Assembly (NCBI GenBank): GCA_016713135.1
Contig: JADJPR010000012.1
Location: 12,601-76,600, forward strand
Origin: Rhodanobacteraceae bacterium
GTDB taxonomy: Bacteria; Pseudomonadota; Gammaproteobacteria; Xanthomonadales; SZUA-5
Direction: 5' to 3'
Length of the DNA stretch: 64,000 nt
Part shown: positions 2,230 through 63,874 of the stretch, piece after piece
Position numbering within the stretch: position 1 is the first letter of the stretch
How the letters are laid out: each line of letters begins with the position of its first letter
Program-made: the position numbers and the translations under genes
Notes under the pieces: generated by a model
The model's input: only the letters and a program-made list of their open reading frames with translations
Databases searched by the model: none
What the model was told of the DNA's origin: nothing

Positions 2230-2505
2230 GTTCAACGCGGAGACGCAGAGGACGCGGAGAAAAGCATGAGAAAGCTCTTCTCTGCGTCTTTGCGTCCTGG
2301 CGCCGAGCACCGTTCAACGCGGAGACGCAAAGGACTCGGGGAGAAGCATCATGAAGCTCTTCTTTGCGTTCCTTTGCGGCCTTCGCGTCTTTGCGTTGAA
2401 CCGTTCCGGCAACAGCACCCAGCGCAGACGCAGAAGACGCGGAGAGAAGCATCCACAAGCTCTTCTCCGCGTTCCTTTGCGTCCTTGGCGTCTCCGTGTT
2501 GAACC
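2230..2505. repeat. Family A hairpin elements, three tandem copies (GTTCAACGCGGAGACGCAGAGGACGC ... GCGTCTCCGTGTTGAAC)
   Basis: Arms are made of GGAGACGC / AGAGGACGC / AAAGGACGC units and their complements. A complete copy at 2312-2403 is flanked by two partial copies. The same family occurs at 18549, 37275, 43432 and 63776. Confidence 0.85.
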
Positions 2506-2522
2506 GCCCGTCCGGAGCAGGC

Positions 2523-4250
2523 TCAGAGGGCGTCGTAGCTCAGCAGGTCGAACTGGATGCTGTCCGAGTCGGTGTTCTTCTGGCGCGCGACGAAGGCGTA
2601 GTTGCGTCCTTCCTCCAGCTTGGCGGTCATCATCTGCTCGACCTGCGGGTTGACGTAGAGCACCACGCGCTTGCCGTCCGCGGTCTGCATCTCCATCGCG
2701 CTGCCGCCGATGATGCCCTCGTGCACATCGTTGATGCGCAGGCCGTCGCGATCGGCCGGCTGGCGGGACACCAGCCTTCCCTGGATGCGCGCGATCTTGC
2801 GCCAGACCGGGTCGTTCTCCGGATCGTAGCCGGCTGGGTCTTCCAGCATCTTCTTCTCGGATTCGGCGGCCAGCGCCATGATCTCGTCCAGGCTCTGGAA
2901 GCGGATCGCCCACTCCCAGCTGCCGGTGTCGCGGCGGATGTGGTCGGCGGCGGAGAAGAACTGTTCGCTCCAGCCGGTCGGGCAGGTCTGGCAGGTGTCG
3001 TAGTTGTCGGCATAGTCCTGCAGGCGCTCCTTCAGGCTGTCGATGCGGTCATGGAATTCCAGGTGCACGCCGGCGCCCAGCGCGACGCCGACCTGCTTGC
3101 TGCCGGTGGCCACCACCAGCACCGCACCGTTGCCCACGTCCAGTTTGCCGACGCGCAGCTGGCGCATCATCGCCGCGGCGTAGTCGTCGGCGCTCAGGCC
3201 GTGCAGGTCCTTGACCAGCAGAGAGACGATCTCGACGCCGCTCGCCTGCGCGTGCTCGTACATCTGCTTCTCGAAGCTGGCGCGCACCGCAGGATCGAGC
3301 AGCCCGGTTTCGTCCATGACGAAGCGGTCGAACTTGGCCGGGATGGCGTTCGGGTCCGGCAGCGGCAGGGTATCGACGCGGCCAGCAGCAGCAGGCAGCG
3401 GCGCGGCAGTGTCCGGGGCCTCCACCGTCGGCTGCGCCGAGGCGATGGTCGCGGTCGCCGGCTCAGTGGTGCTGGCCGGCGGCGGCGCGGCAGGCGTGGC
3501 CGGCGCCGTGGTGGCAACCGCCTCGTCGCTGCAGTCGCTGGACTGCTGCGAGCAGGCCTGGGTCCAGCCTTCCTGGATCGCCTTGACCCGCTTGCTGCGG
3601 CCCGGATGGGTTTTGCCATCCTGCTCGGGCACCAGGGTGTTCATCGCCTTCTGCGCATCGGCGAGCATTGCGCCCATCTTGTACAGCACGAAGCCGGAGA
3701 ACTTGTCGGCCTCCAGCTCGGTCGGCGGCTGGCTGCCGCCCGGCATGATGGTGTGACCGGACAGGTGGTGCCCGATCTCGTGCGCCATGATGCTGATCGG
3801 CGCCCAGTCGTTGTTGGCGGTGGCGGCGCGCACCTCGGACATGAACTTCGGGTTGTAGGCGATCACCCGGCGCGGCAGCTTGTCCGGCCCGAGCATGATC
3901 ACCGCCGCTGCGTTCGGCACTTCGCCCTCGACCACGTCGAAATTCTGCGGCAGGCCGGTGTAACGCATGATCTGCGCGACCACATCCTTGCCGCTGGCGT
4001 TGACGCCCAGCGCGAGCTGCGAAGGGTTCACCTGCAGCGGGGAGCCGTCGTAGGAGCAGGCCTGCAGCGCCATCGCCACCTCGGCGACCATCTCGGCCTC
4101 GCTGAGTGCCTTCGCAGCCGTGCCTACCGCGGCGTCGGCCGCTTTCTGCGCGGTGTCCGCAGCCGGCGTGCCGCTGTCGCCGCAGGCAGCCAGCGCGAAC
4201 AGCACTGCGGTGTAAAGGAGGTGGCGGCGGTGGGGAGCCTGGATGTTCAT
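2523..4250 (-). CDS. Lipoprotein with an N-terminal HExxH zinc-metallopeptidase-like domain, a Pro/Ala/Thr linker, a TPM-like domain and a C-terminal extension
   Basis: Starts MNIQAPHRRHLLYTAVLFALAAC (lipobox LAAC). Metallopeptidase-like motif: MAHEIGHHLSGH...ELEADKFSG. TPM-like stretch: VEIVSLLVKDLHGLSADDYAAAMMRQLRVGK...NGAVLVVATGSKQVGVALGAG. Confidence 0.7.
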   Translation of the reverse strand: MNIQAPHRRHLLYTAVLFALAACGDSGTPAADTAQKAADAAVGTAAKALSEAEMVAEVAMALQACSYDGSPLQVNPSQLALGVNASGKDVVAQIMRYTGLPQNFDVVEGEVPNAAAVIMLGPDKLPRRVIAYNPKFMSEVRAATANNDWAPISIMAHEIGHHLSGHTIMPGGSQPPTELEADKFSGFVLYKMGAMLADAQKAMNTLVPEQDGKTHPGRSKRVKAIQEGWTQACSQQSSDCSDEAVATTAPATPAAPPPASTTEPATATIASAQPTVEAPDTAAPLPAAAGRVDTLPLPDPNAIPAKFDRFVMDETGLLDPAVRASFEKQMYEHAQASGVEIVSLLVKDLHGLSADDYAAAMMRQLRVGKLDVGNGAVLVVATGSKQVGVALGAGVHLEFHDRIDSLKERLQDYADNYDTCQTCPTGWSEQFFSAADHIRRDTGSWEWAIRFQSLDEIMALAAESEKKMLEDPAGYDPENDPVWRKIARIQGRLVSRQPADRDGLRINDVHEGIIGGSAMEMQTADGKRVVLYVNPQVEQMMTAKLEEGRNYAFVARQKNTDSDSIQFDLLSYDAL

Positions 4251-4326
4251 GCGCGGATTCCTCGGGAGAGTGCGGAACTGGGGATGGATGGCGCGGTGCG
4301 CGCCACGCACCGGATGGCGCCGGCAA

Positions 4327-5112
4327 TCAGGCCAGCTGCGCCATCACCAGCCTGACCAGCAGCCAGGCAAAGCCGGCGAGTAGCAACCACTTGATGCCGG
4401 CGAACAGCAGCACGGCGAGCAGCAGCCGCCACCACTCGCGCTTCCAGTCGAGCAGGTAGAACTGCTGGAAGGCGATCGCGACGATCAGCATCTCCACGCC
4501 ATCCATGTACCACGGCGACCATTCCCGGTGCGCGGCGAGGAAGCCCGGATCGCGCCAGATCAATCGCGGCAGCAGGTTGACGATGTTTGCGAGGATGATC
4601 AGAAAATGGCCGTAAATCGCGAGCACCAAGTGCTCGGTGAAGTTGTAGCCGAGCCGATTGCGGAACATCAGGTTGGCGGTGACCAGGATGGCCACGATGC
4701 CGATCGAGAACGACCACTGTCCGTAGGACTGCGCCAGTTGCAGGGCGCGGCTGCTGCCGGCATCCGCGGAGTCGAGGAAGCGCGACTGCGCCAGCAGCAG
4801 CAACAGCACGCCGATCGCGATCAGCAGCAGCTTCAGCGGGTGCACGTGCTTCTTGCGCGCGCCCATGACGAACTCGCGCGCCACCTTGCCCGGCCCGATC
4901 AGCGTGCGCCAGACCGAGCGCAGCGTGGCGAAGTCGAACACCCGCACCTTGTCCCAGGCCTCGCTGGCGATGGTGTTCAGGCGGAAGCGCTCGGCGCGCT
5001 TCTGACCGCAGGCCGGGCACCAAGGCGAGTCGATCCGCTGGCCACAGTTGTGGCACTGCGGCAGGGCGAAGTGGGTGTCCGTCAGCACGGGTTCGCTGGG
5101 GGGCGGGCTCAT
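4327..5112 (-). CDS. Zinc-ribbon membrane protein (DUF3667-like)
   Basis: Starts MSPPPSEP (cat at 5110-5112). N-terminal CHNCGQ...CPACGQ zinc ribbon, followed by several hydrophobic helices. Confidence 0.7.
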   Translation of the reverse strand: MSPPPSEPVLTDTHFALPQCHNCGQRIDSPWCPACGQKRAERFRLNTIASEAWDKVRVFDFATLRSVWRTLIGPGKVAREFVMGARKKHVHPLKLLLIAIGVLLLLLAQSRFLDSADAGSSRALQLAQSYGQWSFSIGIVAILVTANLMFRNRLGYNFTEHLVLAIYGHFLIILANIVNLLPRLIWRDPGFLAAHREWSPWYMDGVEMLIVAIAFQQFYLLDWKREWWRLLLAVLLFAGIKWLLLAGFAWLLVRLVMAQLA

Positions 5113-7934: not shown

Positions 7935-8146
7935 GGTGAAAAGTGAAATGTAAAACGTCAATGGCGCAAGGCACACGAACGCCTCAGGCCCATTGACGTT
8001 TTACGTTTGACGTTTCACCCATCGCGAGTCGGGGGGGCATGCCGGGCCCCGGGGCCAAGGGGGGGAAAGAGGAAAGGAAAACGTCAATGGCGCAAGGCAC
8101 ACGAGCGCCTCAGGTCCATTAACGTTTCACTTTTGACGATTCACTG
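7935..8146. repeat. Family D hairpin elements, two copies (GTGAAAAGTGAAA ... TTTCAC arms, duplicated AACGTCAATGGCGCAAGGCACACGAGCGCCTCAGGCCCATTGACGTT core)
   Basis: The core palindrome occurs at 7954-7999 and again at 8079-8125. AGTGAAA-type units flank it. Related elements lie at 19799 and 62733. Confidence 0.8.
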
Positions 8147-10291: not shown

Positions 10292-10426
10292 TTACGGGAT
10301 CAGGCGATGACGGCCCTTGGCGCGACGACGATTCAGCACGGCGCGGCCATTCTTGGTGGCCATACGGGCGCGGAAGCCATGGGTGCGAGCGTGCTTGAGC
10401 TTGCTCGGCTGGAAAGTGCGCTTCAT
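10292..10426 (-). CDS. rpmH: 50S ribosomal protein L34
   Basis: Not in the ORF track (44 aa). The reverse complement reads [44 protein letters not shown] followed by TAA. Confidence 0.95.
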
Positions 10427-10534
10427 CGCGAACTCCAAGGATCTGTTGAAGAAAAGAGCGGCATGGTAGCCCGCCGCCTCGTCGCCTGTCTAGGGGTAGG
10501 GTGCGGCTTTGTTGGCCCTGGTTCAAGACATGGT

Positions 10535-10700
10535 GAAGAGCGGGGGCTGAAGCGGGGAAGGGGTCAAGGGGAATGCCAAGTGCGTTGCTCGTGGTTTGAG
10601 GTGGCCCGCGCCATCGGGCATGCACTGCCCCAAAATCGTCGCGAAGCCAGTTGCGGAGCCCCTGACCCCTTGCCCGCTTCACCTCCCCCCGCTTCACTTC
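10535..10700. repeat. Family C hairpin element (GAAGCGGGG/GGGGTCAAGGGG ... CCCCTGACCCCTTGCCCGCTTCACCTCCCC)
   Basis: A G-rich left arm and a complementary C-rich right arm surround a core of about 90 nt. The right arm abuts the stop codon of the PEBP gene. Confidence 0.75.
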
Positions 10701-11302
10701 CGCACGTTGCGGTTCAGCGAATAGCGTCCCGTGTGCTGCGCGGTGGCCAGCACGTGGCCGTCCATCCGCGCCAGTGCGTCGGCGGCGCTGAAGCGGCCGG
10801 ACAGGCCGAGCAGCGGCACGTCGAGTGCGTACAGGCGGAAGTGGTAGTGGTGCATACGTTCGTCGTTCCACGGCGGACAAGGGCCGTCGTAGCCGTAGTG
10901 GTCGGCGCCGGGGCTGCTGAAATCGTTGAGGCCCTGCCGGGTGCCTGCAGGTCCACGCGGCTGGCGCTTGCCGCCGGCATGGACCCCCTCGGAACAACTG
11001 CCGGCAACGATTTCGCGCAGCGAGGACGGAATATCGATCATCACCCAGTGGATGAAGTCGCGACGTGGCAAATCGTGCGCGATCACGCGGTCGGCGCGGT
11101 TGGCGTCGTCGAACACGCTGGGCACGTCATCGTCCACGCAAATCAGCACGAAGGACTGGGTGCCGGCGGGGACGTCGTCCCAGGCGAGATGCGGGTTGCG
11201 GTTGGGGCCATCGACCACCGGGCGGTTGCTGCCGGGCACGCCGTAGGCATATTCACTGGCGATTCGGCCGAGCGGCGGGAAACTCTGGCTATGGAGGCGC
11301 AT
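10694..11302 (-). CDS. YbhB/YbcL-family (PEBP / Raf-kinase-inhibitor-like) protein
   Basis: Starts MRLHSQSF (cat at 11300-11302). NPHLAWDDVPAGTQSFVLICVDDDVP and YDGPCPP...HHYHFRLYALD are typical PEBP signatures. Confidence 0.85.
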   Translation of the reverse strand: MRLHSQSFPPLGRIASEYAYGVPGSNRPVVDGPNRNPHLAWDDVPAGTQSFVLICVDDDVPSVFDDANRADRVIAHDLPRRDFIHWVMIDIPSSLREIVAGSCSEGVHAGGKRQPRGPAGTRQGLNDFSSPGADHYGYDGPCPPWNDERMHHYHFRLYALDVPLLGLSGRFSAADALARMDGHVLATAQHTGRYSLNRNVRK

Positions 11303-11315
11303 GCACGGACCCTGG

Positions 11316-12872
11316 ATGAGACGAGGCATACACAATAGCGCTGCGATCGCGTGGCTGCTGCTCGCGCTCGCGGCCTGCGCGCCAGTCGAATGGCGCGGGC
11401 CACGCGTGCCCGAGGCCTCGCTCTCGCCGGCCAACGAGGGACCGATCGCCGACACGGTGCGGCCGATCGGCCTGGCGCCCGGCGAATCGAGTTACCGCCT
11501 GATCGAGTCCAACACCGACGCGCTGGCGCTGCAGCTGCGTGCGGCGCAGCTCTCCGTGCGCAGTCTGGACGCGATGTACTACATGTGGCTGGACGATCGC
11601 AGCGGGCGGCTGCTTGCCGCCGAGCTGATGCGCGCCGCCGACCGCGGCGTTCGCGTGCGCGTGCTGGTGGATGACATGTACGCACGCAAGATCCCGGTGG
11701 AGTTGGCGGCACTGGACCAGCATCCGCGGATCGAGCTGCGCGTCTACCACCCCTACCGCACGCGCGATTCGGCTGCCGCCGCGGTGCTCGAATTCGTGTT
11801 CAGCGGCTTCCGCCTGAACCACCGGATGCACCACAAGGCCTGGATCGCCGATGGCCAGGTCGCTCTGATCGGCGGGCGCAATGTGGGCGACGCCTACTTC
11901 GGCCTGCACGATGGCTTCGATTTCCGCGACCTCGGCGTGCTGCTGGCGGGCGCGGCGGCCGGCGAGGTGTCGGCGATCTTCGACCAATATTGGAACGCGC
12001 CCATCGTGATCCCCTTGGCGGCGGTGCCGTCGAAGGATCCGGTGCCTGCGCTCGCCGACGCCCAGCGCGCGCTGGGGGAAGAGCGCACACACACACTGGG
12101 ACTGCCCGAGTTCGCGCCGCTGGTGGCGCCACGCGCGCTGGATGCGGAAATCCGCAGCGGCGAGGGCCGCCACACCGGCGCGGGCGTGCAGGTGGTCAGC
12201 GACCCGCCGGACAAGTGGCGCCAACGCAAGGACCAACTGATCGGTGTCGCCGCCGAGTTGCGCAAAGCCATTGACCGCGCCGAGCGCGAGGTGGTGCTGA
12301 TCTCGCCCTACTTCGTGCCCGGGCGAGAGGGCATCGCCTGGTTGCGCCGACTGGAGGAACGCGGCGTGCGCGTGCGCGTGCTGACCAACTCGGTCAACGC
12401 CACCGACATCCCCGCGGTGCACGGCGGCTACGCGCACTACCGCATGCGCCTGCTGCGGGCGGGCATCGAAATCAACGAGCTCAAGCGCTCGTCCAGCTTG
12501 CGCCTGGAGTCGCCTTTCCGCGGATCCTCGCGCGCCAGCCTGCACACCAAGGCGGTGGTGATCGACGGCCGCGTGGCCTTCGTCGGCTCGTTCAACCTCG
12601 ACCCGCGCTCGACCTGGATCAACACCGAGATGGGCGTGTTCGTGGACGACCCGCGCTTCGCCGCGCAGGTGCTGCGCGGCTACCAGCACAGCCTCGGCGG
12701 CGAACACTCCTATCGCCTCGCGCTGGAAGGCGGCCGGCGCAAGCGGGTGGTCTGGTACGACCTGCAGGATGGCCAGCCCCGCCGGCAGACGCGCGAACCG
12801 ACCTCGAGCTGGAGCCGACGCTTCATCGCGCTGCTCGCACGCATCGTGCCGACGGCGGAAAGGCATCTGTGA
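11316..12872 (+). CDS. Phospholipase D-family lipoprotein (two HKD motifs)
   Basis: MRRGIHNSAAIAWLLLALAAC lipoprotein signal (an alternative ATG is at 11301). HKD motifs HHKAWIADG and HTKAVVIDGRVAFVGSFNLDPRS. Confidence 0.85.
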   Translation: MRRGIHNSAAIAWLLLALAACAPVEWRGPRVPEASLSPANEGPIADTVRPIGLAPGESSYRLIESNTDALALQLRAAQLSVRSLDAMYYMWLDDRSGRLLAAELMRAADRGVRVRVLVDDMYARKIPVELAALDQHPRIELRVYHPYRTRDSAAAAVLEFVFSGFRLNHRMHHKAWIADGQVALIGGRNVGDAYFGLHDGFDFRDLGVLLAGAAAGEVSAIFDQYWNAPIVIPLAAVPSKDPVPALADAQRALGEERTHTLGLPEFAPLVAPRALDAEIRSGEGRHTGAGVQVVSDPPDKWRQRKDQLIGVAAELRKAIDRAEREVVLISPYFVPGREGIAWLRRLEERGVRVRVLTNSVNATDIPAVHGGYAHYRMRLLRAGIEINELKRSSSLRLESPFRGSSRASLHTKAVVIDGRVAFVGSFNLDPRSTWINTEMGVFVDDPRFAAQVLRGYQHSLGGEHSYRLALEGGRRKRVVWYDLQDGQPRRQTREPTSSWSRRFIALLARIVPTAERHL

Positions 12873-13060
12873 AGCGGAGGAAGGAGATGCGGGGGAGATG
12901 AAGCGGGGCGGGGGACGCAGTCGACGCCCGAGATGCGACGCCTTCGCCGATCGAGGCTACGGGCGGCAGATGGGCAGGCACGTGCACCATGACAGGTCCC
13001 CTGCCCCGCTTCACCTCCCCCGCTTCACCTCCCCCGCTTCACCTCCCCCGCTCCACCTCC
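12871..13060. repeat. Family C hairpin element with a 13-nt unit (CCCCGCTTCACCT) repeated four times in the right arm
   Basis: The left arm gaagcggaggaaggagatgcgggggagatgaagcggggcggggg starts inside the PLD stop codon. The right-arm tandem array spans about 13003-13058. Confidence 0.8.
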
Positions 13061-13145
13061 CGACCCTCACCGGCCTCTTTTTCCGCGTCAGGAACTTGCG
13101 CATCCTCGCGCACTCTGACGACGCCTGTCACATGTATTCACAATC

Positions 13146-15778: not shown

Positions 15779-15880
15779 TTGTGGGTTGTGGGTTGTGGGT
15801 TGTGGGCAGCAAGAGCCGCCAGATCGCGACTTTTCGCCGGGCTTGCGCGCTCCTGCCGCCCACAACCCAGAACCCACAAC
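15779..15880. repeat. Family B hairpin element ((GTGGGTT)n-GGGCAGCAAGAGCC ... CTGCCGCCCACAACCCAGAACCCACAAC)
   Basis: The left arm has four GGG runs spaced by TTGT. The right arm is complementary. It sits between two adaptor genes of one operon. Confidence 0.85.
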
Positions 15881-18548: not shown

Positions 18549-18642
18549 GGACGCAAAGGACGCAAAGGACGCAAAGAAGATCAAACCGCGCGGGGATATC
18601 CCGGCACTTGCTGTCTTTGCGTCCTTTGCGTCCCCTTTGCGT
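18549..18642. repeat. Family A-related hairpin element ((GACGCAAAG)3 ... (CTTTGCGTC)3)
   Basis: gacgcaaaggacgcaaaggacgcaaagaag ... ctttgcgtcctttgcgtcccctttgcgt, lying between convergent genes. Confidence 0.85.
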
Positions 18643-19798: not shown

Positions 19799-19880
19799 AA
19801 AAGTGAAAGGTGAATAGTGAAAGGAAAAGACGCGCAAGTCGGTTCGCTCGCCCTTTCACTTTTCACTTTTCACTTTTCAC
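19799..19880. repeat. Family D hairpin element (AAAGTGAAAGGTGAATAGTGAAAGG ... CCTTTCACTTTTCACTTTTCACTTTTCAC)
   Basis: Complementary arms of AGTGAAA-type heptamers surround a short GC-rich core. Confidence 0.85.
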
Positions 19881-19903: not shown

Positions 19904-19920
19904 ATTGACACGATGTCAAT
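19904..19920. promoter_or_regulatory. Candidate TetR operator overlapping a TTGACA -35-like hexamer
   Basis: ATTGACA-cga-TGTCAAT inverted repeat (7-bp arms), 22 nt upstream of the TetR ATG. A related half-conserved site lies upstream of the TolC-like gene. Confidence 0.45.
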
Positions 19921-22157: not shown

Positions 22158-22270
22158 CGGGTTGTGGGTTGTGGGTTCTGAGTTGTGGGCAGCAGCAGCC
22201 TGCAATCTGGCAACCCAAGTGCAACGAAGCGGCTCTTGCCGCCCACAACCCACAACCCAGAACCCACAAC
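22158..22270. repeat. Family B hairpin element
   Basis: gggttgtgggttgtgggttctgagttgtgggcagcagcagcc ... ggctcttgccgcccacaacccacaacccagaacccacaac. It lies between the TolC-like and MFP genes. Confidence 0.85.
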
Positions 22271-22289
22271 CTCCTCAAGGAACCCCCTC

Positions 22290-23342: not shown

Positions 23343-23349
23343 TTGAGAA

Positions 23350-23589
23350 AGAGCGGGGCAGGGGTCAAGGGGCGGGGGAAACACATCTGCGCTCTTGCAC
23401 ACGGCAAAGCGGGTCGCGTCCCGCGACAGAGCCGTCCCCTGCGGCACCGCGTTCGCCCTGCCCCGCTCTTGCCGAGCGCGCAAGGCAGTGCATCTGCGCT
23501 CTTCCGCAAGGAAAAGGGATTTCGCCCCGCGACAGAGCTGACTTGTGCGACATCGCGTTTCCCCTGCCCCCTGACCCCTGACCCGCTCT
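23350..23589. repeat. Family C hairpin element with an internally duplicated core
   Basis: Arms are agagcggggcaggggtcaaggggcggggg ... cccctgccccctgacccctgacccgctct. The core repeats catctgcgctctt...cgcgacagagc twice. It lies between the MFP and RND genes of one operon. Confidence 0.8.
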
Positions 23590-23619
23590 TGATAAGCGCC
23601 CAGGCACCCCGAGCCCGCC

Positions 23620-26691: not shown

Positions 26692-26971
26692 GGGTTCCGT
26701 TCGCCGAAGCAAACTGGAGGGCACGGAAGTGCCGCCTCGGTGCGAAGGAGCGCCTTTGCGTGCCCTCGGGCCCGAGTGCCCTAGCGCCCTCCGGACTTAT
26801 CATCTCCAAATCAATGCCTTGTGAATTCTTGGCAAGCGAGCCGTAGGCCGGTGTGCGGCCTCAGGCCGTTCACCGGGTACTTGCGGCAAGCACCGGTGAA
26901 CGCGCGGCGCGCGTACACCGGGCTACGCTCCCGGAGCGACAGGCCGACAGGAATCGCGCTAGGCTGGCGCC

Positions 26972-27283: not shown

Positions 27284-27343
27284 GTGCTCTGGCGCGATGT
27301 GTTCATCATCGATCCGGCCCGCCCGACTCCGAGGAAACCGTGC

Positions 27344-27769
27344 ATGCGCATGCCCATCGCGATCTGCCTGTGGCTGGCCACCGCTCCGGCGATGACGCTG
27401 GCCCAGAGCGGCTGCGGTTACGTCAGTACCAGCACCAAGCCACCGGTGTCCAAGGAGATCTACCCCGCCGCCATCCGCCAGATCGACGGCAAGGACGTGG
27501 ACGGCAGCAAGCGCATCAAGCTGACTCTGGGCGTGCACAAGATCGCGGTGCAGGAACGGATCGCGGACGAGCGCCGCGGCAACACCAAGCTGCGCAAGCT
27601 GGGCAACAAGCAGACCGAGCTGGTCCTCAAGGTGCTGGAAGTGGACGTCAAGGCCGACGGCAACTACCTGATTGGTGCCCAGTTGTACGAAGACCGCATT
27701 GACCCCGCCAAGCCGAATGACTACTGGGAGCCGGTGGTCTGGCGCACCACGCTGGATAGCTGCGGGTAG
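27344..27769 (+). CDS. Small secreted hypothetical protein (about 141 aa)
   Basis: MRMPIAICLWLATAPAMTLAQSGC signal peptide, followed by a Lys-rich, probably beta-rich sequence. The start is 61 nt after the previous stop. Confidence 0.55.
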   Translation: MRMPIAICLWLATAPAMTLAQSGCGYVSTSTKPPVSKEIYPAAIRQIDGKDVDGSKRIKLTLGVHKIAVQERIADERRGNTKLRKLGNKQTELVLKVLEVDVKADGNYLIGAQLYEDRIDPAKPNDYWEPVVWRTTLDSCG

Positions 27770-27985
27770 CGGGGAAGCGGCAAAGGCAAGAGCGGGGCAG
27801 GGGGCAGGGGGCAGGGGACCAGGCTGGCGGCATGGTCAGACCACAAGGTGGCGGGGCGTGACGGGCTGGTTTCGAGCTTTGCGCGCCCAACCCCAATTTG
27901 CCTCCATCCCCGCAAGCGCCGCCAAGCATTCCCCCTGCCCCGCTTCTCCACCCCCGCTTCTCCACCCCCGCGTCACCTTCCCCGC
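27770..27985. repeat. Family C hairpin element with a GGGGCAGGGGGCAGGGGGCAGGGG left arm
   Basis: The left arm is at 27770-27820. The right arm ccccctgccccgcttctccacccccgcttctccacccccgc is at 27931-27972. It ends just before the kinase stop codon. Confidence 0.8.
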
Positions 27986-27987
27986 CT

Positions 27988-30279
<2,292 letters not shown>

Positions 30280-37202: not shown

Positions 37203-37274
37203 TGGGAGCGCCGGTCGGCCCGGCCGGTGCGCTTGTTCGCGCATCGAACTGGCGCGTGCCCTTGCCTGTTTTTT

Positions 37275-37347
37275 GTCCGCAAAGGACGCAGAGGACGCAA
37301 AGAGAGCAAGGTCGGCGGCGGGCCTGCGTCCTTTGCGTCCTTTGCGG
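37275..37347. repeat. Family A-related hairpin element
   Basis: gtccgcaaaggacgcagaggacgcaaagagag ... cctgcgtcctttgcgtcctttgcggat, lying between convergent genes and followed by an AT-rich patch. Confidence 0.85.
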
Positions 37348-37408
37348 ATAAAATATCTTTTATTTCATTAACTTAGATCGTGTTCGGCGAGAGCGTCGGC
37401 GCTCCCGG

Positions 37409-43431: not shown

Positions 43432-43600
43432 GTTCAACGCGGAGACGCGGAGACGCGGAGGAACACGGAGAACAGCAGAGAGATGCTTTTCTCCACGTCT
43501 CTGTGCCCGCGTGCTGAACCTTGAACGCGAAGACGCAGAGACGCAGAGATGAGTGCCTTCTCCTGCTTCTCTCCGCGTCCTCCGCGTCTCCGCGTTGAAC
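43432..43600. repeat. Family A hairpin elements, two adjacent copies
   Basis: The copy at 43432-43519 reads gttcaacgcggagacgcggagacgcggagg...gtgctgaac. The copy at 43521-43600 reads ttgaacgcgaagacgcagagacgcagag...ctccgcgtcctccgcgtctccgcgttgaac. Confidence 0.88.
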
Positions 43601-55981: not shown

Positions 55982-56190
55982 TCCAGGCATGTGATCCCGG
56001 TCGCGAATCCGCCGTGTGCAGGCGGCGTGAAGGCCCCGCAAGGCCCCGAAACAGCGTTTGTGCAAATCAAACGCCGCTGGGTGCATGCTTGCGCCACAGG
56101 GGATCGTGGGGCTGCCCGCTGGGTGCGCGGCAGTGGTCACCAAGCTGGGTCGCGCCGGCCCGACGCGAAGCACCGAGGGAGAAGCAAGCC

Positions 56191-59100: not shown

Positions 59101-59601
59101 GAACCGCAGCGCCTGAACCTGTCGCTGACCGGCAGTCCATCGAGCAATGCGGCGGCGAGCTACCCGGTGCGCGTGCGCATCGCCCGGCGCACGGCGACCA
59201 CCACCGACGTGGTCTTCGACAGCACCCAGACGATCTCGCTGAGCGCGCCGTTCAACACCAGCATCGACCTGCCGCCGGGCTTCTACGAGGCCACCGTGGC
59301 GCCGACCAGCGGTGCCGCGGGTGGCGCGCCGGAGGGCCAGTTCTTCTTCGGTCTGACGACCAGCTTCATCGGCCGTCCCGGCGGTGGGTTCCAGGGCGGC
59401 GCGGTGGTTGGCGGCTACCACGCCACCCACCCCTTCGGCGGCGTCAGCGGATTTGCCGCCTTCTGCCTCGCGACGCCGCACAGCACCAGCGTTCGCGTGC
59501 TCTCGCAACCTACCTACGGTGCTGCCGGTGCTCAGGACCTGCGGCTGCGCATGCAGGATGCGCAGCAGCGCGACCTGATCGCGGTGCCGAGCAGCAACTG
59601 A
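56191..59601 (+). CDS. Giant secreted protein 2 (1136 aa): paralog of protein 1 in the PD40-like and C-terminal regions, with a jelly-roll-like insert
   Basis: Starts MNTIATTALCALMALAAGSAIA after a GAGGGAGAAG Shine-Dalgarno. It is in frame within ORF 55978..59601. Confidence 0.85.
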   Translation: MNTIATTALCALMALAAGSAIAGNHPDPAQLADRPKATSVFLTNVTSVEDSCGGVRYSAILNMFGTNNDGGGNDLIWFTIFDDNQEKFAQSFSAPVGQSRQFQVVAEYPGRVGQVAPGIGIYVGETRGDGGLILIDPFFPTLTSGCTIGGTPPALGFSPSTGSTISYNAAGAASAIGVSNAGGGSGGGPAGTTTLTTCTITGGAAFPTTSFNPAISAVGSGAPSPASITLPACVPQAATATASLRCLETRGSGGTPAQRTWTLSCPASVAATPPRLNAPLVEAFAIGGGLPNGNSQAPVLSRNGARIAYTSDASNIVSGDPNTRPDIFLRDRVFNTTTRVSQLAEALNPGMQEGYDDPAISADGNTVAFTGTSGQVYATAGSSARKISANASGSLGNAPSANAFPISDGSLVFFDSRATNLLSGNDGNGGMDDIFVKNLGNDSVTLISRDPNGGPADGPSAAPSASADGQTIVFHTLATNIVPGGTTPTGFSQNFDGVTAPSLPAGWTALNATTGNNFRWQTTTASAPPAPSAPNSVYVDEEGVVSDKMLDSALLTVVGQPATLSFQRLHNLESNFDGLVLEISVNGGGYSDAVTAGGSFTAGGYNGVISNSFLSPIGGRNAWTGNTGSYVTTTYRLPGNIASGASVRFRWRAATDTSVGGGEVHVDNITSTNLSLPGSVATKLPSGVKAGTIQQATMMRGGGFGQSRFYLSRNLASGELGNGDSTNVKVTPDGRWAVFQSLASNLVTGDTNNVSDIYRVEISNNQVVRMDRVTLTKTGEQPNGNSFLPQISDDGQLVTFQTEATNLAPPDTNGQPDVMVKSMVSGDVLRMSQTTDGQEPNGLTVLPTISGDGSTLGFCTLATNVAGGDNNGAADVFTSGIQSSLPRDEPGLVRFTLPTPNPPNASCPAGFFSAVVDDGPGAGVTPGTFGVELLLDDPGTRVLAGGLNFGGLIDVGQVGFAAFNFANAANEPQRLNLSLTGSPSSNAAASYPVRVRIARRTATTTDVVFDSTQTISLSAPFNTSIDLPPGFYEATVAPTSGAAGGAPEGQFFFGLTTSFIGRPGGGFQGGAVVGGYHATHPFGGVSGFAAFCLATPHSTSVRVLSQPTYGAAGAQDLRLRMQDAQQRDLIAVPSSN

Positions 59602-59613
59602 AGCAGTGCAACC

Positions 59614-59645
59614 CGATCGGGAGCGGCAGACGCCGCTCCCGATCG
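59614..59645. terminator. Perfect 14-bp hairpin between convergent genes (possible bidirectional terminator, no U-tract)
   Basis: cgatcgggagcggc-agac-gccgctcccgatcg. Confidence 0.5.
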
Positions 59646-59652
59646 ACACGGC

Positions 59653-60669
59653 TCAGCCCGCCGCGTCCGCGCTCCACTTGCCGAGCGCCGCGAGGCCGTT
59701 CTCGCGGGCGCGCTGGGCGACGGTCTTCTGCGCCGCGGCGAAATTGCCCTGCATGTCCTTGGCCCACAGCTTCAGCGCTGCAGTCTGCATCGCGCGGCCG
59801 TAGGAGAAGGACAGCGGCCACGGGTGCGGGCCCATCTGGTTCATCGCGTTCAGATGCGCGGTGGCGGCATCATCGCTTTGGCCACCGGAGAGGAACACGA
59901 TGCCCGGCACCGAGGCCGGCACCGCCGCGCGCAGGCACATCAGGGTGGCTTCGGCCACTTCCTCGGTGTCCGCCTGCTCGTCGCAGTCCTTGCCGGCGAT
60001 GACCATGCTCGCCTTGAGGATGGTGCCCTCGAGCATCACGTTGTGCTCGTACAGCGCGTTGTACAGCGAGCGCAGCGTCGCCTCGGTCACGTCGAAGCAG
60101 GTTTCGATGTCGTGGTCGCCGTCCATCAGCACTTCCGGCTCCACCATCGGCACGATGCCCGCTTCCTGGCACAGCGCGGCGTAGCGCGCCAGCGCGTGGC
60201 AGTTGGCGTCGATGCAGGCGGCCGACGGCTTGTCATCGGCGATGGTGATCACCGCGCGCCACTTGGCGAACTTGGCGCCCAGCGCCACGTATTCCTTCAG
60301 GCGCTCGCGCAGGCCATCCAGGCCCTCGGTGATCAGCTCGCCCGGGAAACCGGCCAGGCCGACCGTGCCCAGGTCCACCTTGATCCCCGGCAGCACGCCC
60401 GCAGCGCGCATCACGTCGACGAAGCGGCGGCCGTCCTTGGTCGACTGGCGCAAGGTCTCGTCGTACAGGATCGCACCCGAGATGTGATCGCCCAGGCCCG
60501 GCGTGGTCAGCAACATCTCGCGATAAGCGCGACGGGTCTCTTCGGTGCACTCGATGCCGACACCGTCGAAGCGCTTCTTGATCGTCTTGGAAGACTCGTC
60601 GATGGCGATGATGCCCTTGCCGGGCGCAACCATCTGGCGGGCGATGTCGGCGAGATCGGAAATGTCCAT
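59653..60669 (-). CDS. Fructose-bisphosphate aldolase, class I
   Basis: Starts MDISDLADIARQMVAPGKGIIAIDESSKTIKKRF. ILYDETLRQ. PGIKVD. LEGTILKASMV. LSGGQS. 338 aa. Confidence 0.92.
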   Translation of the reverse strand: MDISDLADIARQMVAPGKGIIAIDESSKTIKKRFDGVGIECTEETRRAYREMLLTTPGLGDHISGAILYDETLRQSTKDGRRFVDVMRAAGVLPGIKVDLGTVGLAGFPGELITEGLDGLRERLKEYVALGAKFAKWRAVITIADDKPSAACIDANCHALARYAALCQEAGIVPMVEPEVLMDGDHDIETCFDVTEATLRSLYNALYEHNVMLEGTILKASMVIAGKDCDEQADTEEVAEATLMCLRAAVPASVPGIVFLSGGQSDDAATAHLNAMNQMGPHPWPLSFSYGRAMQTAALKLWAKDMQGNFAAAQKTVAQRARENGLAALGKWSADAAG

Positions 60670-60732
60670 GGGTGTGGCCTTGGGCTGCGGAGATGGGCGC
60701 GGAGTATAGGGGTGGGGCGCTGGCTGGGGGCT

Positions 60733-60923
60733 GGTTGTCGGTTGTTGGTTGTTGGTTGTTGGTTGTTGGCAGCGAAGCGCGCGCGCCGAGGCTCCTGTGG
60801 GAGCCGACTCTGTCGGCGATCTTCTCCCGCGGCCCTGAGGAAAAGCTCGCGGCTGAAGCCGCTCCCACCAACTTACGGACCGCCGGCTCTTGCTGCCCAC
60901 AACCCAGAACCCACAACCCACAA
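60733..60923. repeat. Composite element: GGTTGTT-type left arm, GTGGGTT-type (AACCCAC) right arm, with a nested classical REP-like pair inside
   Basis: Left arm: ggttgtcggttgttggttgttggttgttggttgttggcagc. Nested pair: ctgtgggagccgactctgtcggcgat (60795-60820) and ctcgcggctgaagccgctcccacca (60846-60870). Right arm: ggctcttgctgcccacaacccagaacccacaacccacaa. Confidence 0.8.
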
Positions 60924-61006: not shown

Positions 61007-62737
61007 ATGATCCGTTCCTTCCTGCCCCTCGCGGTGGCCGCGGTGCTGCTCGGCGCCTGTGGCGAGGCGCCGCCGCCGGCTGCGCCCGCCACGCCGCCCG
61101 CTGCGCCCGCGGCCGACCCCGCACCGGCCGCCGAGGCCGCGGTCAAGCTGCCGGACGCACCGGCCACCGATGCCGCGATTCGCGCCGAAGACCTCGCCGC
61201 GCAGATCCAGATCATCGCCTCCGACGAGTTCGCCGGGCGCCAGCCGGGTGGTCCGGGTGAGCGAAAGACGGTCGCCTACCTGTCGCGCGAGTTCGCGCGC
61301 CTGGGCCTGAAGCCGGGCAACGGCGACAGCTACACCCAGCAGGTGCCGATGGTCGAGATCGTCTCCGAGGCCACCGGCCCGGTGCAGATCAGCTATGCCG
61401 ACGGCAGCACGGACAGCCTGGCCATCGGCGACGAGGCCGTGGTGCAGACGCTGCGCGAAGACCCGGCGTCGGCGGTCAAGGACAGCGAGCTGGTGTTCGT
61501 CGGCTTCGGCGTCAACGCGCCGGAACTCGGCTGGAACGACTACGCCGGCGTCGACGTCAAGGGCAAGACGGTGCTGGTGCTGGTCAACGATCCCGGATTC
61601 GAAACCGGCGATCCGGAACTGTTCCGCGGCAAGGCGATGACCTACTACGGCCGCTGGACCTACAAGTACGAGGAAGCCCTGCGCCAGGGCGCGGCCGCCG
61701 CGCTGGTGCTGCACGACGACGCCGGCGCCGCCTACGGCTGGGAAGTGGTGCGCAACAGTTTCGCCGGCGCCGAATTCGATCTGCCGCACGTGGATGGTGA
61801 TCCGGCGCCGCTGGCGATCCGCGGCTGGCTGACCAGCGCCGCGGCCCAGCGCGTTTTCGCGAAGCTCGGCCACGACTACGCCGCGCTGCGCAAGGCCGCC
61901 AACCAGCCCGGTTTCAAGGCGGTGCCGCTGGACGCGAAGATCAGCATGGGCGTGACCAGCCGGGTGCGCCACGCCGAGTCGGCCAACGTCGTCGGCGTGC
62001 TGCCGGGCAGCGAGCGTCCCGAGGAAGTGGTGATCTTCACCGCGCACTGGGACCACCTCGGGCGCAGCTTCCAGAGCAAGGAAGACGGCATCTTCAACGG
62101 CGCGGTCGACAACGCCACCGGCGTGGCCGCGCTGCTGGAACTGGCCGAGGCTTTCGCCAAGTCCCCCACGCCGCCCAAGCGCAGCCTGATGTTCCTGTCG
62201 GTGACCCTGGAGGAATCCGGCCTGCTCGGCTCCAAACACTATGTGCAGCAGCCGCTGATGCCGCTCAAGGACACCGTGGCGACGGTCAACATGGACGCGA
62301 TCCAGGTGATCGGCAAGACCCGCGACGTGGTGGTCATCGGCCACGGCAACTCGGAACTGGAAGACATCCTCAAGCGCCACGCCGAGGAACAGGGCCGCAT
62401 CATCGTGCCCGAGCCGACCCCCGAGAACGGCTTCTACTACCGCTCCGACCACTTCAACTTCGCCCGCGCGGGCGTGCCCTCGCTGTACGCGAAGAACGGC
62501 ATCGACCACGTCGAGATGGGCGAGTCCTACGGCCGCCAGGTCGCCGCCGACTACGTCGCGCAGCGCTACCACAAGCCGTCGGACCAGTTCGACCCGAGCT
62601 GGGATTTGTCCGGCAATGTGCAGGACACGGAGCTGTTGTACGCGGTGTCGCGCGAGATCGCCGACGGCAACGCCTGGCCGAACTGGTACGAGGGGACCGA
62701 GTTCAGGGCGGCGCGGGAAGCGATGCGCCGGCAGTGA
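61007..62737 (+). CDS. M28-family peptidase lipoprotein
   Basis: MIRSFLPLAVAAVLLGAC lipobox. Pro/Ala linker. Metal-ligand motifs HWDHLG, DNATG, LEESGLLGS, YYRSDHFNFA. Confidence 0.88.
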   Translation: MIRSFLPLAVAAVLLGACGEAPPPAAPATPPAAPAADPAPAAEAAVKLPDAPATDAAIRAEDLAAQIQIIASDEFAGRQPGGPGERKTVAYLSREFARLGLKPGNGDSYTQQVPMVEIVSEATGPVQISYADGSTDSLAIGDEAVVQTLREDPASAVKDSELVFVGFGVNAPELGWNDYAGVDVKGKTVLVLVNDPGFETGDPELFRGKAMTYYGRWTYKYEEALRQGAAAALVLHDDAGAAYGWEVVRNSFAGAEFDLPHVDGDPAPLAIRGWLTSAAAQRVFAKLGHDYAALRKAANQPGFKAVPLDAKISMGVTSRVRHAESANVVGVLPGSERPEEVVIFTAHWDHLGRSFQSKEDGIFNGAVDNATGVAALLELAEAFAKSPTPPKRSLMFLSVTLEESGLLGSKHYVQQPLMPLKDTVATVNMDAIQVIGKTRDVVVIGHGNSELEDILKRHAEEQGRIIVPEPTPENGFYYRSDHFNFARAGVPSLYAKNGIDHVEMGESYGRQVAADYVAQRYHKPSDQFDPSWDLSGNVQDTELLYAVSREIADGNAWPNWYEGTEFRAAREAMRRQ

Positions 62738-62816
62738 AAAGTGAAAAGGAAAAAGTGAAAGGGAGAGCGGGCGAGGCGTCGTCGCTCGCTCTTTTTCACT
62801 TTTCACCTTTCACTTT
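62733..62816. repeat. Family D hairpin element
   Basis: agtgaaaagtgaaaaggaaaaagtgaaaggg ... ctctttttcacttttcacctttcacttttg. The left arm begins at the peptidase stop codon. Confidence 0.85.
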
Positions 62817-62829
62817 TGGCTGACCCCCC

Positions 62830-63753
62830 ATGCCCCTCCACGCCCCCTCCGGCCGCTGGCGCCTCGGCCTCGCGCTGGCCATCGCCACCGCGCTGTTCTG
62901 GGCCACCCTGCCAGTGGCGCTGAAGGTGTCGCTGGAGGTGGTCGACGCCTTTACGCTGACCTGGTTCCGCTTCCTGTTCGCCACCCTCGCGCTCGGCGCC
63001 TTCATCGCCTGGCGCGGGCAGTTCCGCCAGTTCCGCGGGCTGCCGCGGCGGGCCTGGTGGATGCTCGCCATCGCCGCGCTCGGGCTGATCGGCAACTACC
63101 TCGGCTACCTGCTCGGGCTGAACTACACCTCGCCGGCGAACGCCCAGCTGCTGATCCAGCTGGCGCCGCTGCTGATGGCCGCCGGCGGCGTGGTGGTGTT
63201 CAAGGAGCGACTCAACCGCGCGCAGTGGTTCGGCTACGCGGCGGTCGCGGGCGGGCTGGCGCTGTTCTTTGTCGAGCAGCACGGCCGCGCCGCGGCGCCG
63301 TCCACCTATGCCTTCGGCGGCTGGCTGATCGTCGGCGCCGCCGCCACCTGGGCGGCCTACGCGCTGGTGCAGAAGCAGCTGCTGCGGCGGCTCGACTCGC
63401 AAGTCATCCTGTGGGTGATCTACGCCGCCGCGGCGGTGCTGCTGCTGCCGCTCGCCAGCCCGTCGAAACTGCTCGCGGTCGACGGCGCGCACTGGGTGGC
63501 GGTGATCTATTGCGCGCTCAACACCATCGGCGCGTACGGCGCCTTCGCCGAGGCCCTGGCGCACTGGGAAGCCTCGCGCGTCAGCGCCATCCTCGCGATG
63601 ACCCCGCTGCTCACGGTCGCCACCGTCAGCGCCTTCGCCGCCTTCATGCCCGGCCTCGTCGCCCCCGAACGCATCGGCGCCATCGGCTGGATCGGCGCGC
63701 TCGCGGTGGTCGGCGGCTCGGCGGCGGTCAGCTTGCTGGGGTCGCGTCGCTGA
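62830..63753 (+). CDS. DMT-superfamily (EamA-type) transporter
   Basis: Ten predicted helices. FWATLPVALKV and LIGNYLGYLLGLNYTSPANAQLLIQLAPL patterns. Confidence 0.85.
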   Translation: MPLHAPSGRWRLGLALAIATALFWATLPVALKVSLEVVDAFTLTWFRFLFATLALGAFIAWRGQFRQFRGLPRRAWWMLAIAALGLIGNYLGYLLGLNYTSPANAQLLIQLAPLLMAAGGVVVFKERLNRAQWFGYAAVAGGLALFFVEQHGRAAAPSTYAFGGWLIVGAAATWAAYALVQKQLLRRLDSQVILWVIYAAAAVLLLPLASPSKLLAVDGAHWVAVIYCALNTIGAYGAFAEALAHWEASRVSAILAMTPLLTVATVSAFAAFMPGLVAPERIGAIGWIGALAVVGGSAAVSLLGSRR

Positions 63754-63775
63754 GGTTTTCGCTTCGGGCGGATCG

Positions 63776-63874
63776 GTTCAACGCGGAGACGCAGAGGACG
63801 CCGAGAAAGGCAGAGAAGCGCTGCGAACCTGGGCCTTTGCCTTGCTCTGCGTCCTCTGCGTCTCCGCGTTTGAC
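63776..63874. repeat. Family A hairpin element
   Basis: gttcaacgcggagacgcagaggacgccgagaaagg ... ctctgcgtcctctgcgtctccgcgtttgac. Confidence 0.88.

Follow-up and report, generated by a model that had tools for sequence, protein, structure and literature searches.

The locus and its intergenic hairpins

We analysed a 64,000-nt stretch of contig JADJPR010000012.1 from a Rhodanobacteraceae bacterium (assembly GCA_016713135.1, positions 12,601 to 76,600, forward strand), hereafter called the window, whose intergenic regions hold long hairpins with arms built from short tandem repeats; these had been noticed in an initial annotation made from the sequence alone. The window has a GC content of ~69% and is Lysobacterales/Rhodanobacteraceae-like. 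A gene call based on GC3 gave 41 genes, to which rpmH (about 10296-10430, minus strand) was added; it had been dropped by the open reading frame (ORF) length filter and fixes the cluster rpmH-rnpA-yidC-mnmE. Pfam searches with the predicted proteins described a housekeeping chromosomal region. Besides that cluster it contains genes for an extracytoplasmic function (ECF) sigma factor, an ABC/HlyD/MacB exporter, TonB receptors, glycosyltransferases, an aldolase and an M28 peptidase, and a TetR gene followed by an efflux operon encoding an outer-membrane factor, a resistance-nodulation-division (RND) adaptor and an RND pump. No tRNA was found in the window and nothing reached the Rfam gathering score across it. 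Among the 41 predicted proteins there was no transposase, no RAYT (the transposase associated with repetitive extragenic palindromes, REPs), no integrase, no GxxExxY protein and no four-helix-bundle/IVP protein, in agreement with the initial annotation, which had seen no mobilising gene. The closest genomes were metagenome-assembled genomes (MAGs) of uncultured Lysobacterales/Rhodanobacteraceae, with at most 86% protein identity among GTDB representatives and 96% for a Logan contig (L011). Comparisons of families and polarity within the clade rest on 137 kb of related Lysobacterales DNA (L001-L012); loci from metagenomes (L019-L028), from IMG/VR (L030-L038), from Sphingomonas parapaucimobilis (L045) and from S. 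paeninsulae (L131) were used further on.

Repeat-armed hairpins were found at 17 loci in the window, or about 21 units when the three tandem copies at 2230-2504 and the two at 43432-43600 are counted separately. All of them are intergenic and have a common design, in which tandem units are followed by a non-conserved core of 20-175 nt and then by the inverse units, each half consisting of a short family-specific terminus and 2-5 tandem units of 7-9 (up to 14) nt. Tandem units were detected with Tandem Repeats Finder (TRF), inverted repeats with an ungapped scan at a score of at least 15, and indels and unequal arms by gapped alignment. The ungapped scan returned 13 inverted repeats, all 13 in intergenic DNA, which makes up 11.4% of the window (P about 6e-13), against 0.33 per window in first-order Markov simulations and none in the 100 simulations of intergenic composition. 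Gapped alignment added 27770-28010, 60732-60923 and the tandem copies at 2230-2504 and 43432-43600. The TRF arrays of period 6-14 with skewed composition were all intergenic as well and lay where the initial annotation had placed the elements, and RNA folding gave dG values of -37 to -85 kcal/mol, with z of -5 to -11 against shuffled sequences. The hairpins are thus real, and their earlier family assignments and coordinates were right, except that the former family A had to be divided in two.

The combined element length is 2.4 kb, corresponding to 3.8% of the window and 33% of its intergenic DNA. It had been stated that almost every gap longer than 90 nt is occupied, which was too strong: about 16 of about 25 such gaps hold an element, with 11/16 co-directional, 2/3 convergent and 2/7 divergent gaps occupied. 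Typically an element extends from the upstream stop codon to shortly before the next ribosome-binding site, and the reported contacts or overlaps with stop codons were found again at 12869, 62733, 10697 and 27988. T-runs 3' of the arms are absent in most elements; in one family (A2, below) the arrangement is reversed, with a T-run 5' and an A-run 3'. Both ends of contig L011 (1197 nt) fall within hairpin arms, and this suggests that the elements fragment short-read assemblies of such genomes.

Families and copies in the window

Family A, as delimited here, has GTTCAAC termini and GGAGACGC/AGAGGACGC units and non-repeated ends of the form (G)GTTCAAC...GTTGAAC(C). In its triple copy, the first unit (2230..2311) has the left terminus GTTCAAC, GGAGACGC/AGAGGACGC units and a degenerate right terminus, the second (2312..2401; dG -44, z -5.1) is complete from GTTCAAC to GTTGAAC, and the third (2421..2504) lacks the left terminus and ends in GTGTTGAAC. 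The double copy consists of 43432..43520 (GTTCAAC followed by three ACGCGGAG units; z -5.8) and 43521..43600 (TTGAAC...GTTGAAC; z -5.1). The longest stem of the window belongs to the copy at 63770..63880, with 46-nt arms that are 87% complementary (dG -84.9, z -11.1). Family A2, which was split off, has a GTCCGC terminus and AAAGGACGC units. It occurs at 18549..18642 between convergent genes, as (GGACGCAAA) x3.1 ... (CTTTGCGTC) (z -8.0), and at 37271..37353 with the conserved termini TTTTGTCCGC...GCGGATAAAA (z -8.8); the termini TTTGTCCGC...GCGGACAAA are common to the window, L001, L002, L007 and L012.

Family B is represented at 12..34 by a 3' arm only (CAACAAC x3.1, from TRF and the sequence), the element being cut by the start of the window. 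The copy at 15779..15880 reads (GTTGTGG) x4.1, a clamp GGGCAGCAAGAGCC...GCTCCTGCCGCCC and (CCCACAA) x3.1 (dG -67.6, z -7.8), and its right arm includes the variant unit CAGAACC. Another copy (22158..22271; z -6.9) separates the outer-membrane-factor and RND adaptor genes of the one efflux operon. The copy at 60732..60923, in a divergent gap, has a left arm of (TGGTTGT) x5.4 and a right arm of (CCCACAA) x4, two sub-types that do not match, and a REP-like GTGGGAGC palindrome (60797-60868) is nested in its core. A clamp, GGGCAGCAAGAGCC...GGCTCTTGCCGCCC, recurs in the family B copies, as does the variant unit CAGAACC, which in 22158 is displaced outwards by one repeat relative to 15779 and 60732. 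Because this unit is shared but shifted by one repeat, the sequences point to common descent of the copies followed by slippage.

Family C has four copies in the window. At 10533..10697 (GAAGCGGGG/GGGGTCAA units, 88-nt core) the element lies directly upstream of rpmH, and its 3' arm overlaps the stop of a PEBP gene (10694-11455, minus strand). At 12869..13075 the 5' arm begins within the stop codon of a PLD-like gene (11406-12872) and the 3' arm is (CCTCCCCCGCTTCA) x4.4 (TRF, gapped alignment). The copy at 23349..23590, between the RND adaptor and RND pump genes, has a 174-nt core with an internal duplication. The last copy, 27770..28010, reads (GGGGCAG) x3.4 ... (CCCCGCTTCTCCAC) x5.2 (TRF, gapped alignment); it starts at the stop of gene 27284-27769 and overlaps the stop of a kinase gene (27988-30279, minus strand) by 23 nt. 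Family C arms (12996-13061, 27794-27817) include TCACCTCC, a sequence that 16S rRNA has at its 3' end, opposite a perfect GGAGGTGA in the other arm; they also hold GGGCAGGG, which agrees with the KOPS consensus of E. coli, GGGNAGGG. Both matches are taken to be coincidental, since Shine-Dalgarno (SD)-like 4-mers are not enriched overall (see below).

Family D and its D2 variant were found near yidC and at two further sites. The element at 7935..8019, between the mnmE start and the yidC stop, combines GTGAAAA and AAACGTC units with a core-proximal clamp ACGTCAATGG (dG -47.7, z -8.4), and a shorter second hairpin of the D2 type, AAAGGAAAACGTCAATGG ... CCATTAACGTTTCAC, lies at 8073..8133 (inverted-repeat scan, gapped alignment). 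The copy at 19799..19880, (AAAAGTG)n ... (TTTCACT) x3.9 (z -7.3), occupies the divergent gap between an FAA-hydrolase gene and the TetR gene. A palindrome ATTGACACGATGTCAAT at 19904-19920, upstream of this TetR-family gene and 24 nt from the hairpin, is kept in L001-L004 and is probably the TetR operator. The copy at 62733..62817 (z -7.0) starts inside the M28 peptidase stop codon and leaves 12 nt to the next start codon.

A weak candidate for a further family, of uncertain status, lies at 26715..26795 (GAGGGCAC ... GCCCTCG/GCCCTAG units; TRF, alignment), with units related to GCACGAGG of L006 and L007. The hairpin arms carry no GTAG head; GTAG-headed palindromes resembling REP/SMAG sequences form separate features at 26842-26927 (CGTAGGCCGG...CCGGGCTACG) and 60797-60868 (GTGGGAGCCGAC...GCCGCTCCCAC), and similar ones were seen in L002 (3893), L003 (14416) and L004 (7188/14488).

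Turnover of the families among relatives

Related Lysobacterales genomes carry these families too, at sites that are not orthologous. Around the efflux operon gene order is kept in eight relatives, and the orthologous gaps carry different families. The gap between the adaptor and pump genes is filled by family C in the window, L008 and L011 (96% amino acid identity), by A2 in L001, L002 and L012 (90%), by GCACGAGG units in L006 and by a non-tandem GTAGGTCACG palindrome in L003/L004, and it is empty in L005. Upstream of the adaptor gene, B-type arms with three different units were found in the window, L001, L011 and L012, and A2 in L002 and L007. Relatives with different families in one orthologous gap have 70-96% protein identity.

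Within elements, unit numbers vary between arms, between copies and between orthologues, while most of the complementarity between the paired arms is preserved. Arms can be unequal, with 4 vs 8 units in L012 and 4.1 vs 3.1 at 15779, or chimeric, as in L007 (1978-2180), where an A2 left arm is paired with (TCGTGCCC) x11.8 on the right, and at 60732, where GGTTGTT is paired with CCCACAA. In alphaproteobacterial loci two arm families may be nested or interleaved. In this respect the arms act as modules. The cores are unrelated among the family C copies (10533, 12869, 23349, 27770), among the family B copies and among family A copies in other taxa, and no convincing ORF was present in the core of the L008 element (4742-5039).

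The conserved termini, the recurrence of families at non-orthologous sites and their replacement at orthologous ones argue for dispersed elements that are modified by slippage, not for hairpins grown in place. We infer that the families spread by some copying process and are often replaced, slippage and arm-to-arm correction being secondary.

Polarity of the arms

In all 17 window loci and in every pair of L001-L012 the G- or purine-rich array comes first, and no pair of opposite polarity was found in the window or in the 137 kb of related DNA. This part of the initial annotation stood for the window; its rule has to be reworded as a 5' arm that is either richer in G than in C or purine-rich: GGTTGTT, the family B variant, is G+T-rich and not purine-rich, and AAACGTC is purine-rich with C>G. 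At least 12 unit types are G- or purine-first, with G>C in 11/12 and a purine excess in 10/12. They comprise GGAGACGC, AAAGGACGC, GGGTTGT/GGTTGTT, GAAGCGGGG/GGGGCAG and AGTGAAA from the window, and additionally AAACGTC, GCACGAGG, GGAAAAA, GGGAATC, GTGAGTA, GGTGTT and GGGGCAC. Because an inverted repeat reads alike on both strands, this polarity is an intrinsic choice of purine...pyrimidine over pyrimidine...purine and not a strand bias.

Outside the clade the polarity is not absolute. The mirror, C-first pattern of the family A unit was found at 11 metagenome loci. Several of these are junctions of adjacent G-first units, with GTGAAC facing GTTCAC termini (L019, L021, L023, L026, L027); others have no outer partner array (L020, L022, L024/L028, L025), and two of these, L025 (8549-8698) and L022 (258-385), resemble genuine C-first hairpins. 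L041 (8300-8470) holds one such hairpin built from a different unit. The same two family A patterns gave 10 G-first and 0 C-first loci in IMG/VR.

Two candidate accounts were rejected. Shine-Dalgarno mimicry as a general cause of the purine-first order does not fit, SD-like 4-mers in the 5' arms numbering 29 against 40 expected; they are absent from family B and nearly absent from C and D. Polar motifs resembling Chi or KOPS, of which GAAGCGG and GGGCAGGG occur in family C, were discarded, as more than 10 unrelated units cannot all be such sites. As ideas, the purine-first order might avoid transient exposure of a C-rich, Rho-binding arm, or G-rich nascent strands might fold back preferentially.

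Family A in other phyla and the GxxExxY cassette

In the plasmid BLAST search, family A units were recovered as G-first hairpins in Gemmatirosa (Gemmatimonadota), Sphingopyxis and Sphingobium and as a long solitary array in Burkholderia; the search gave no match for the family A copy 2305-2410 or for family C, and for family B it gave solitary arrays only, in Deinococcus and Streptomyces. Examples of unpaired arrays are more than 30 units of ACGCGGAG/ACGCAGAC-type 8-mers in Burkholderia stagnalis (L016, 2881-3170) and (CCCACAA) x7 in Deinococcus grandis (L017, 3005-3053), situated between the stop of a 1-phosphofructokinase gene and the start of a phosphotransferase system (PTS) gene. Units of window families A and B therefore also exist unpaired in distant taxa. 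IMG/VR yielded ten further G-first copies of family A. Altogether 52 half-elements from the window and other taxa share TTCAC(G/A)CGGAGRCGCGGAGRCGCGGAG, almost always with three units, and the window copies at 2231, 2313, 43433, 43599 (minus strand) and 63777 align with the 46 half-elements of other taxa, with one extra A in the terminus.

In seven loci (L019, L021, L026, L027, L040, L041, L043) arms of the family A type flank a gene of roughly 125 codons and not a short core, and an eighth arm-bracketed gene was found in L045. The gene product is a GxxExxY protein (TIGR04256, E 1e-40; PF13366 PDDEXK_3, E 1e-39) of the PD-(D/E)XK fold, and not a known transposase. The cassette is roughly 440-500 bp long and was found in Sphingomonas, in an Ignavibacteria MAG and in unassigned metagenome contigs, each time in the intergenic spacer of a conserved operon. 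Its ends consist of TTCAC and about three GCGGAGRC units, with the inverse and GTGAA opposite, and the family A ends of the window match them. The arms travel with the gene, because the protein termini translate the arm arrays: a C-terminal tail ...NNLxPSASPRLRVNQ or a close variant, present in 20/20 sequences fetched, is the translated pyrimidine-rich array plus GTGAAC, and an N-terminus SRG(D/G)AETRR, in 7/20 of the fetched proteins, is translated TCAC plus the purine-rich array. Next to the gene, gene-less hairpins of about 105 nt stand in tandem, three in L041 and two in L043, and resemble the tandem copies of the window.

The cassettes lie in operons, between restriction-modification genes (L040, L043) and in a pyrimidine-catabolism cluster (L041). 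In S. parapaucimobilis a cassette with the arms TTCACGCGAAGG...CTTCGCGTGAA (L045, 1465-1905) is inserted between fabD and fabG; in S. paeninsulae (L131) the fabD-fabG spacer is 30 nt and the 440-bp cassette is missing. In AT-rich Bernardetia the gene stands between CACAGAGA/TCTCTGTG arrays, with the same architecture and polarity and a shifted composition. At least 7952 GxxExxY homologues were returned by the protein search. Only five plasmid records carry the gene, two of them from Sphingomonas and Gemmatirosa, which are 2/5 of the genera with family A arms found by BLAST. The AlphaFold model of the protein has a mean confidence (pLDDT) of 87, and its best fold matches in the PDB (Foldseek) were Cas4 (SSO0001), AdnAB, CinB and alkaline exonuclease, all weak (best E 6.6e-3, TM 0.45); a PDB sequence search gave no significant match. 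The literature searched contained passing mentions of GxxExxY only.

Copies of the alphaproteobacterial type in L030-L038 often hold a terminator-like hairpin with a T-run (GGCGGCTTTGCCGCC TTTTT) within the core, directly 5' of the pyrimidine-rich arm, e.g., L034 (5190-5215) and L036 (2296-2320). Genes of a second type, encoding four-helix-bundle 23S_rRNA_IVP proteins (PF05635), were seen bracketed by inverted arrays of simple sequence repeats (SSRs) within operons, including between atpG and atpD (L041 4160-4760; L124/L126 1150-1660; L128 1165-1656). The flanking arrays are GGGTTCA/TGAACCC, ATTCAGG/CCTGAAT and TTGGATT/AATCCAA, and the flanking unit GGGTTCT is also a variant unit of window family B, which we mention as a lead only. 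The flanks of a four-helix-bundle gene in Nostoc (L130) were not complementary arrays.

Origin of the elements

As far as sequence comparison reaches, our results demonstrated that the hairpins form discrete families which are dispersed in the genome, shared with relatives and exchanged at orthologous intergenic sites, and likewise that the family A arms are homologous to the ends of a gene-carrying cassette gained and lost as a unit. Family A thus looks like a gene-less, MITE-like derivative (MITE, miniature inverted-repeat transposable element) of the GxxExxY cassette; tblastn found no GxxExxY homologue in the window, and its family A copies are hence gene-less. We consider it fairly probable, though by no means assured, that the hairpins are family-structured, foldback-type mini inverted-repeat elements, that family A represents gene-less derivatives mobilised in trans, and that the stems are tolerated as RNA. 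Under this explanation a candidate GxxExxY nuclease encoded elsewhere in the genome would mobilise family A, by analogy with RAYTs and the REP doublets (REPINs) that they move, and A2, B, C and D would be analogous elements. The stems would be tolerated or cut as RNA, like the intervening sequences of rRNA, and are probably, by that analogy, putative substrates of RNase III; any benefit to the host would be secondary. The initial annotation had described a REP/MITE-like population of structured intergenic repeats, which agrees with these results, and had preferred slippage to mobile elements, which does not: in the full-length copies the arms of family A, which are conserved from phylum to phylum, enclose a gene.

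Several observations weigh against the foldback explanation. The GxxExxY gene was found neither in the window nor in the 137 kb from relatives, and for A2, B, C and D the comparisons turned up no parent with a gene. No target-site duplication (TSD) was detected and no direct repeat is evident around the family A copies; the filled and empty fabD-fabG sites are too diverged for a TSD to be read. Unlike those of ordinary MITEs or REPINs, the cores of one family are unrelated. The unit changed in both halves between relatives at 96% protein identity (GGGTTGT to GGTGTTG, GGGGCAG to GGGGCAC), which speaks for strong local processes. The arrays of A2, B and D units in viral contigs were mostly solitary and lay in unrelated contigs of medium GC, so these scans say little on the three families. 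Nor does this explanation account for the uniform polarity within the clade.

Growth in place would mean that each hairpin was expanded independently by slippage, with template switching keeping the arms complementary and no copying between loci. The unequal arms of L012 and 15779, the parallel unit change just mentioned and the unrelated cores are what it would produce, and heptamer SSRs are prone to slippage and abundant in Xanthomonas (Mrazek et al., 2007, as summarised in PMC4679880; Rehm et al., 2015, PMC4692102). However, copies of a family, and different species at non-orthologous sites, have non-repeated termini, clamps and a variant unit in common; the half-elements of family A hardly differ among several phyla, nearly all of them with exactly three units; one orthologous gap holds different families; and the cassette is present or absent as a whole. 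We therefore regard independent growth as unlikely. Slippage nevertheless accounts for the differing unit numbers between arms, copies and orthologues, and this much of the earlier proposal is retained, but not slippage as the main origin, given the conserved termini and the replacement of families. Selection by the host for RNA hairpins acting as bidirectional terminators, 3'-end stabilisers or operon insulators, the sequence families being incidental, is in our opinion improbable too. A long hairpin of whatever sequence is kept in the adaptor-pump gap of 8/9 relatives (window included), elements abut stop codons, and tandem and convergent gaps (11/16 and 2/3) are preferred to divergent ones (only 2/7), a bias that the GGGAATC repeats of Xanthomonas share, most of which are transcribed in X. 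citri (Rehm et al., 2015; PMC4692102). Against such selection, most 3' arms have no U-tract and A2 has the reversed arrangement, two elements sit in divergent promoter gaps, chimeric arm pairs that are not complementary exist, alphaproteobacterial copies have their own canonical terminator inside the core, and L005 has no element at the conserved site. A rho-independent terminator was rejected on the same ground, most of the arms being without a following U-tract, and the suggested terminator role was accordingly not upheld. Since the elements lie in transcribed spacers (efflux and fab operons) and form 25-45-bp stems without a U-tract, tolerated RNA stems are the more fitting description; a host benefit, for instance stability or insulation of mRNA segments, would be compatible with the constant hairpin of the adaptor-pump gap.

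A role as G-quadruplex (G4) regulatory repeats, with the G-rich arm as the functional part, has been proposed for the GGGAATC arrays of Xanthomonas, for which G4 formation in vitro and a preference for four units were described (Rehm et al., 2015; PMC4692102). In the window, (G3+N1-7)x4 motifs on at least one strand occur at 7/17 loci and are carried by families B and C; G4 is thus not the common denominator. A, A2 and D, together with GGAAAAA, AAACGTC and GTGAGTA in relatives, have the same architecture and no G-tracts, and a complementary arm would compete with G4 formation, which makes this a very unlikely explanation of the elements. To mobilisation of REP/REPIN elements by a RAYT we give hardly any credence. 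The inverted-doublet design is similar, the density is like that of REP-rich genomes, and true GTAG-headed palindromes are present in the same genomes (window, L002, L003, L004). But the arms have neither a GTAG/CTAC head nor a short imperfect-palindrome unit, the REP-like palindromes form a separate population, one being nested in a family B core, and no Y1 transposase is among the 41 window proteins. Family A was further compared with integron attC sites, because its termini fit the pattern RYYYAAC ... GTTRRRY (for a 7-mer, a chance of about 1/1024), which those of the other families do not. This identity was rejected: the genes are housekeeping, in mixed orientation and syntenic in relatives, and there is no integrase.

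The foldback explanation can be extended to a class of bacterial foldback cassettes with small selfish genes that silently invade the spacers of essential operons by way of an excisable RNA stem, GGGAATC repeats and part of the heptamer SSR excess being their relics. The genes would be GxxExxY PD-(D/E)XK nucleases and perhaps 23S_rRNA_IVP, the operons fab, atp, restriction-modification and efflux, and in this Lysobacterales lineage gene-less derivatives would have multiplied until about two thirds of the longer spacers held one. We advance this only tentatively and hold it to be rather doubtful. Many 5-11-nt tandem arrays of large genomes (Xanthomonas, Burkholderia, cyanobacteria) may be the ends of exchangeable, family-structured elements, where prior explanations of the SSR excess were slippage or G-quadruplexes only. 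One family now has a concrete gene partner, and this turns its origin into an experimentally testable question. GxxExxY/PF13366 is a very large protein family, whose function, if our reading is true, would be that of the nuclease of a repeat-armed cassette. As the elements make up a third of the intergenic DNA and stand within operons, they are likely to affect mRNA processing.

Other features of the window

A 150-nt tandem duplication (52281-52554; 1.8 copies, 75% identity) lies within a beta-propeller-repeat gene (51770-55981, 1403 aa). A perfect 14-bp GC-rich hairpin with a 4-nt loop, without tandem units or a T-run, lies at 59614-59645 in the 51-nt convergent gap between a gene at 56089-59601 (plus strand) and the aldolase gene (59653-60669, minus strand).

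Comparison with known systems

The initial annotation could place the hairpins in no described family. This holds for the window units, whose arm sequences did not occur in the literature searched. The architecture, in contrast, is partly known, because convergent pairs of GGGAATC heptamer arrays have been described in Xanthomonas (Rehm et al., 2015; PMC4692102), and the GGGAATC family itself is present in the relative L008 (18388-18463), though not in the window. In that study 186 sites were counted in X. campestris and 183 in X. citri, with 2-26 units each; 89-93% were intergenic, gaps between divergent genes were under-represented, repeat length differed between the two species in the same gene context, and each genome had 70-75 convergent pairs of neighbouring arrays whose two members lay on opposite strands (Rehm et al., 2015; PMC4692102). 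The authors weighed G-quadruplex against stem-loop and left the function open. Like the window elements, these pairs consist of tandem 6-9-nt units in at least two copies, are intergenic and have convergent G-first arrays. Unlike them, they have the single unit GGGAATC/(GGGANTN) and were framed in terms of G4, whereas the window shows the design with at least five other unit families, most of which cannot form it. Families defined by termini, cores and clamps, family turnover, a link to a gene and spread across phyla were not reported by Rehm et al. (2015).

SSRs of 5-11 nt, dominated by heptamers and intergenic, were described by Mrazek et al. (2007, as summarised in PMC4679880), where slippage is proposed and Xanthomonas (X. 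campestris being among the richest), Burkholderia and cyanobacteria are named as especially abundant in them. Those SSRs are solitary direct arrays, and within that summary the paired inverted design and family termini are not in the description.

REPINs, like the window elements, are non-autonomous hairpin doublets dispersed in intergenic DNA, with several families per genome. They are presumed to be mobilised by the product of a single-copy gene that has the same repeats on its flanks. A REP unit, however, is an imperfect palindrome, short and headed by a conserved tetranucleotide, and not a tandem array; REPIN spacers, unlike the cores here, are conserved within a family; and the enzyme (RAYT) is an HUH Y1 transposase as opposed to the candidate PD-(D/E)XK protein here. 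MITEs derived from insertion sequences (IS) resemble the window elements in being small and intergenic, with terminal inverted repeats, tandem or nested copies and, for family A, a longer gene-bearing relative. They differ in that no TSD was seen here, the cores are non-homologous, the ends are tandem repeats and the gene encodes no known transposase.

Two further systems offer likenesses. Eukaryotic Foldback (FB) transposons have terminal inverted repeats made of short, number-variable tandem repeats, with a centre that is variable or absent. The likeness is architectural only: FB elements are eukaryotic, of kilobase scale and served by another transposase superfamily. The intervening sequences (IVS) of 23S rRNA form a long stem bounded by inverted repeats, with or without a PF05635 ORF, and are tolerated through processing of the stem. 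They share with the window elements the long-stem insert and the existence of versions with and without an ORF, and PF05635 genes are bracketed by SSRs in L041, L124, L126 and L128. Unlike the window elements, which lie between protein genes and are known here from their sequence, IVS sit in rRNA. Compared with all these systems, what appears to be new here, on the sequences compared, is the set of unit families, a shared architecture independent of G4, a fast turnover between families and a gene-bearing counterpart of one family across phyla.

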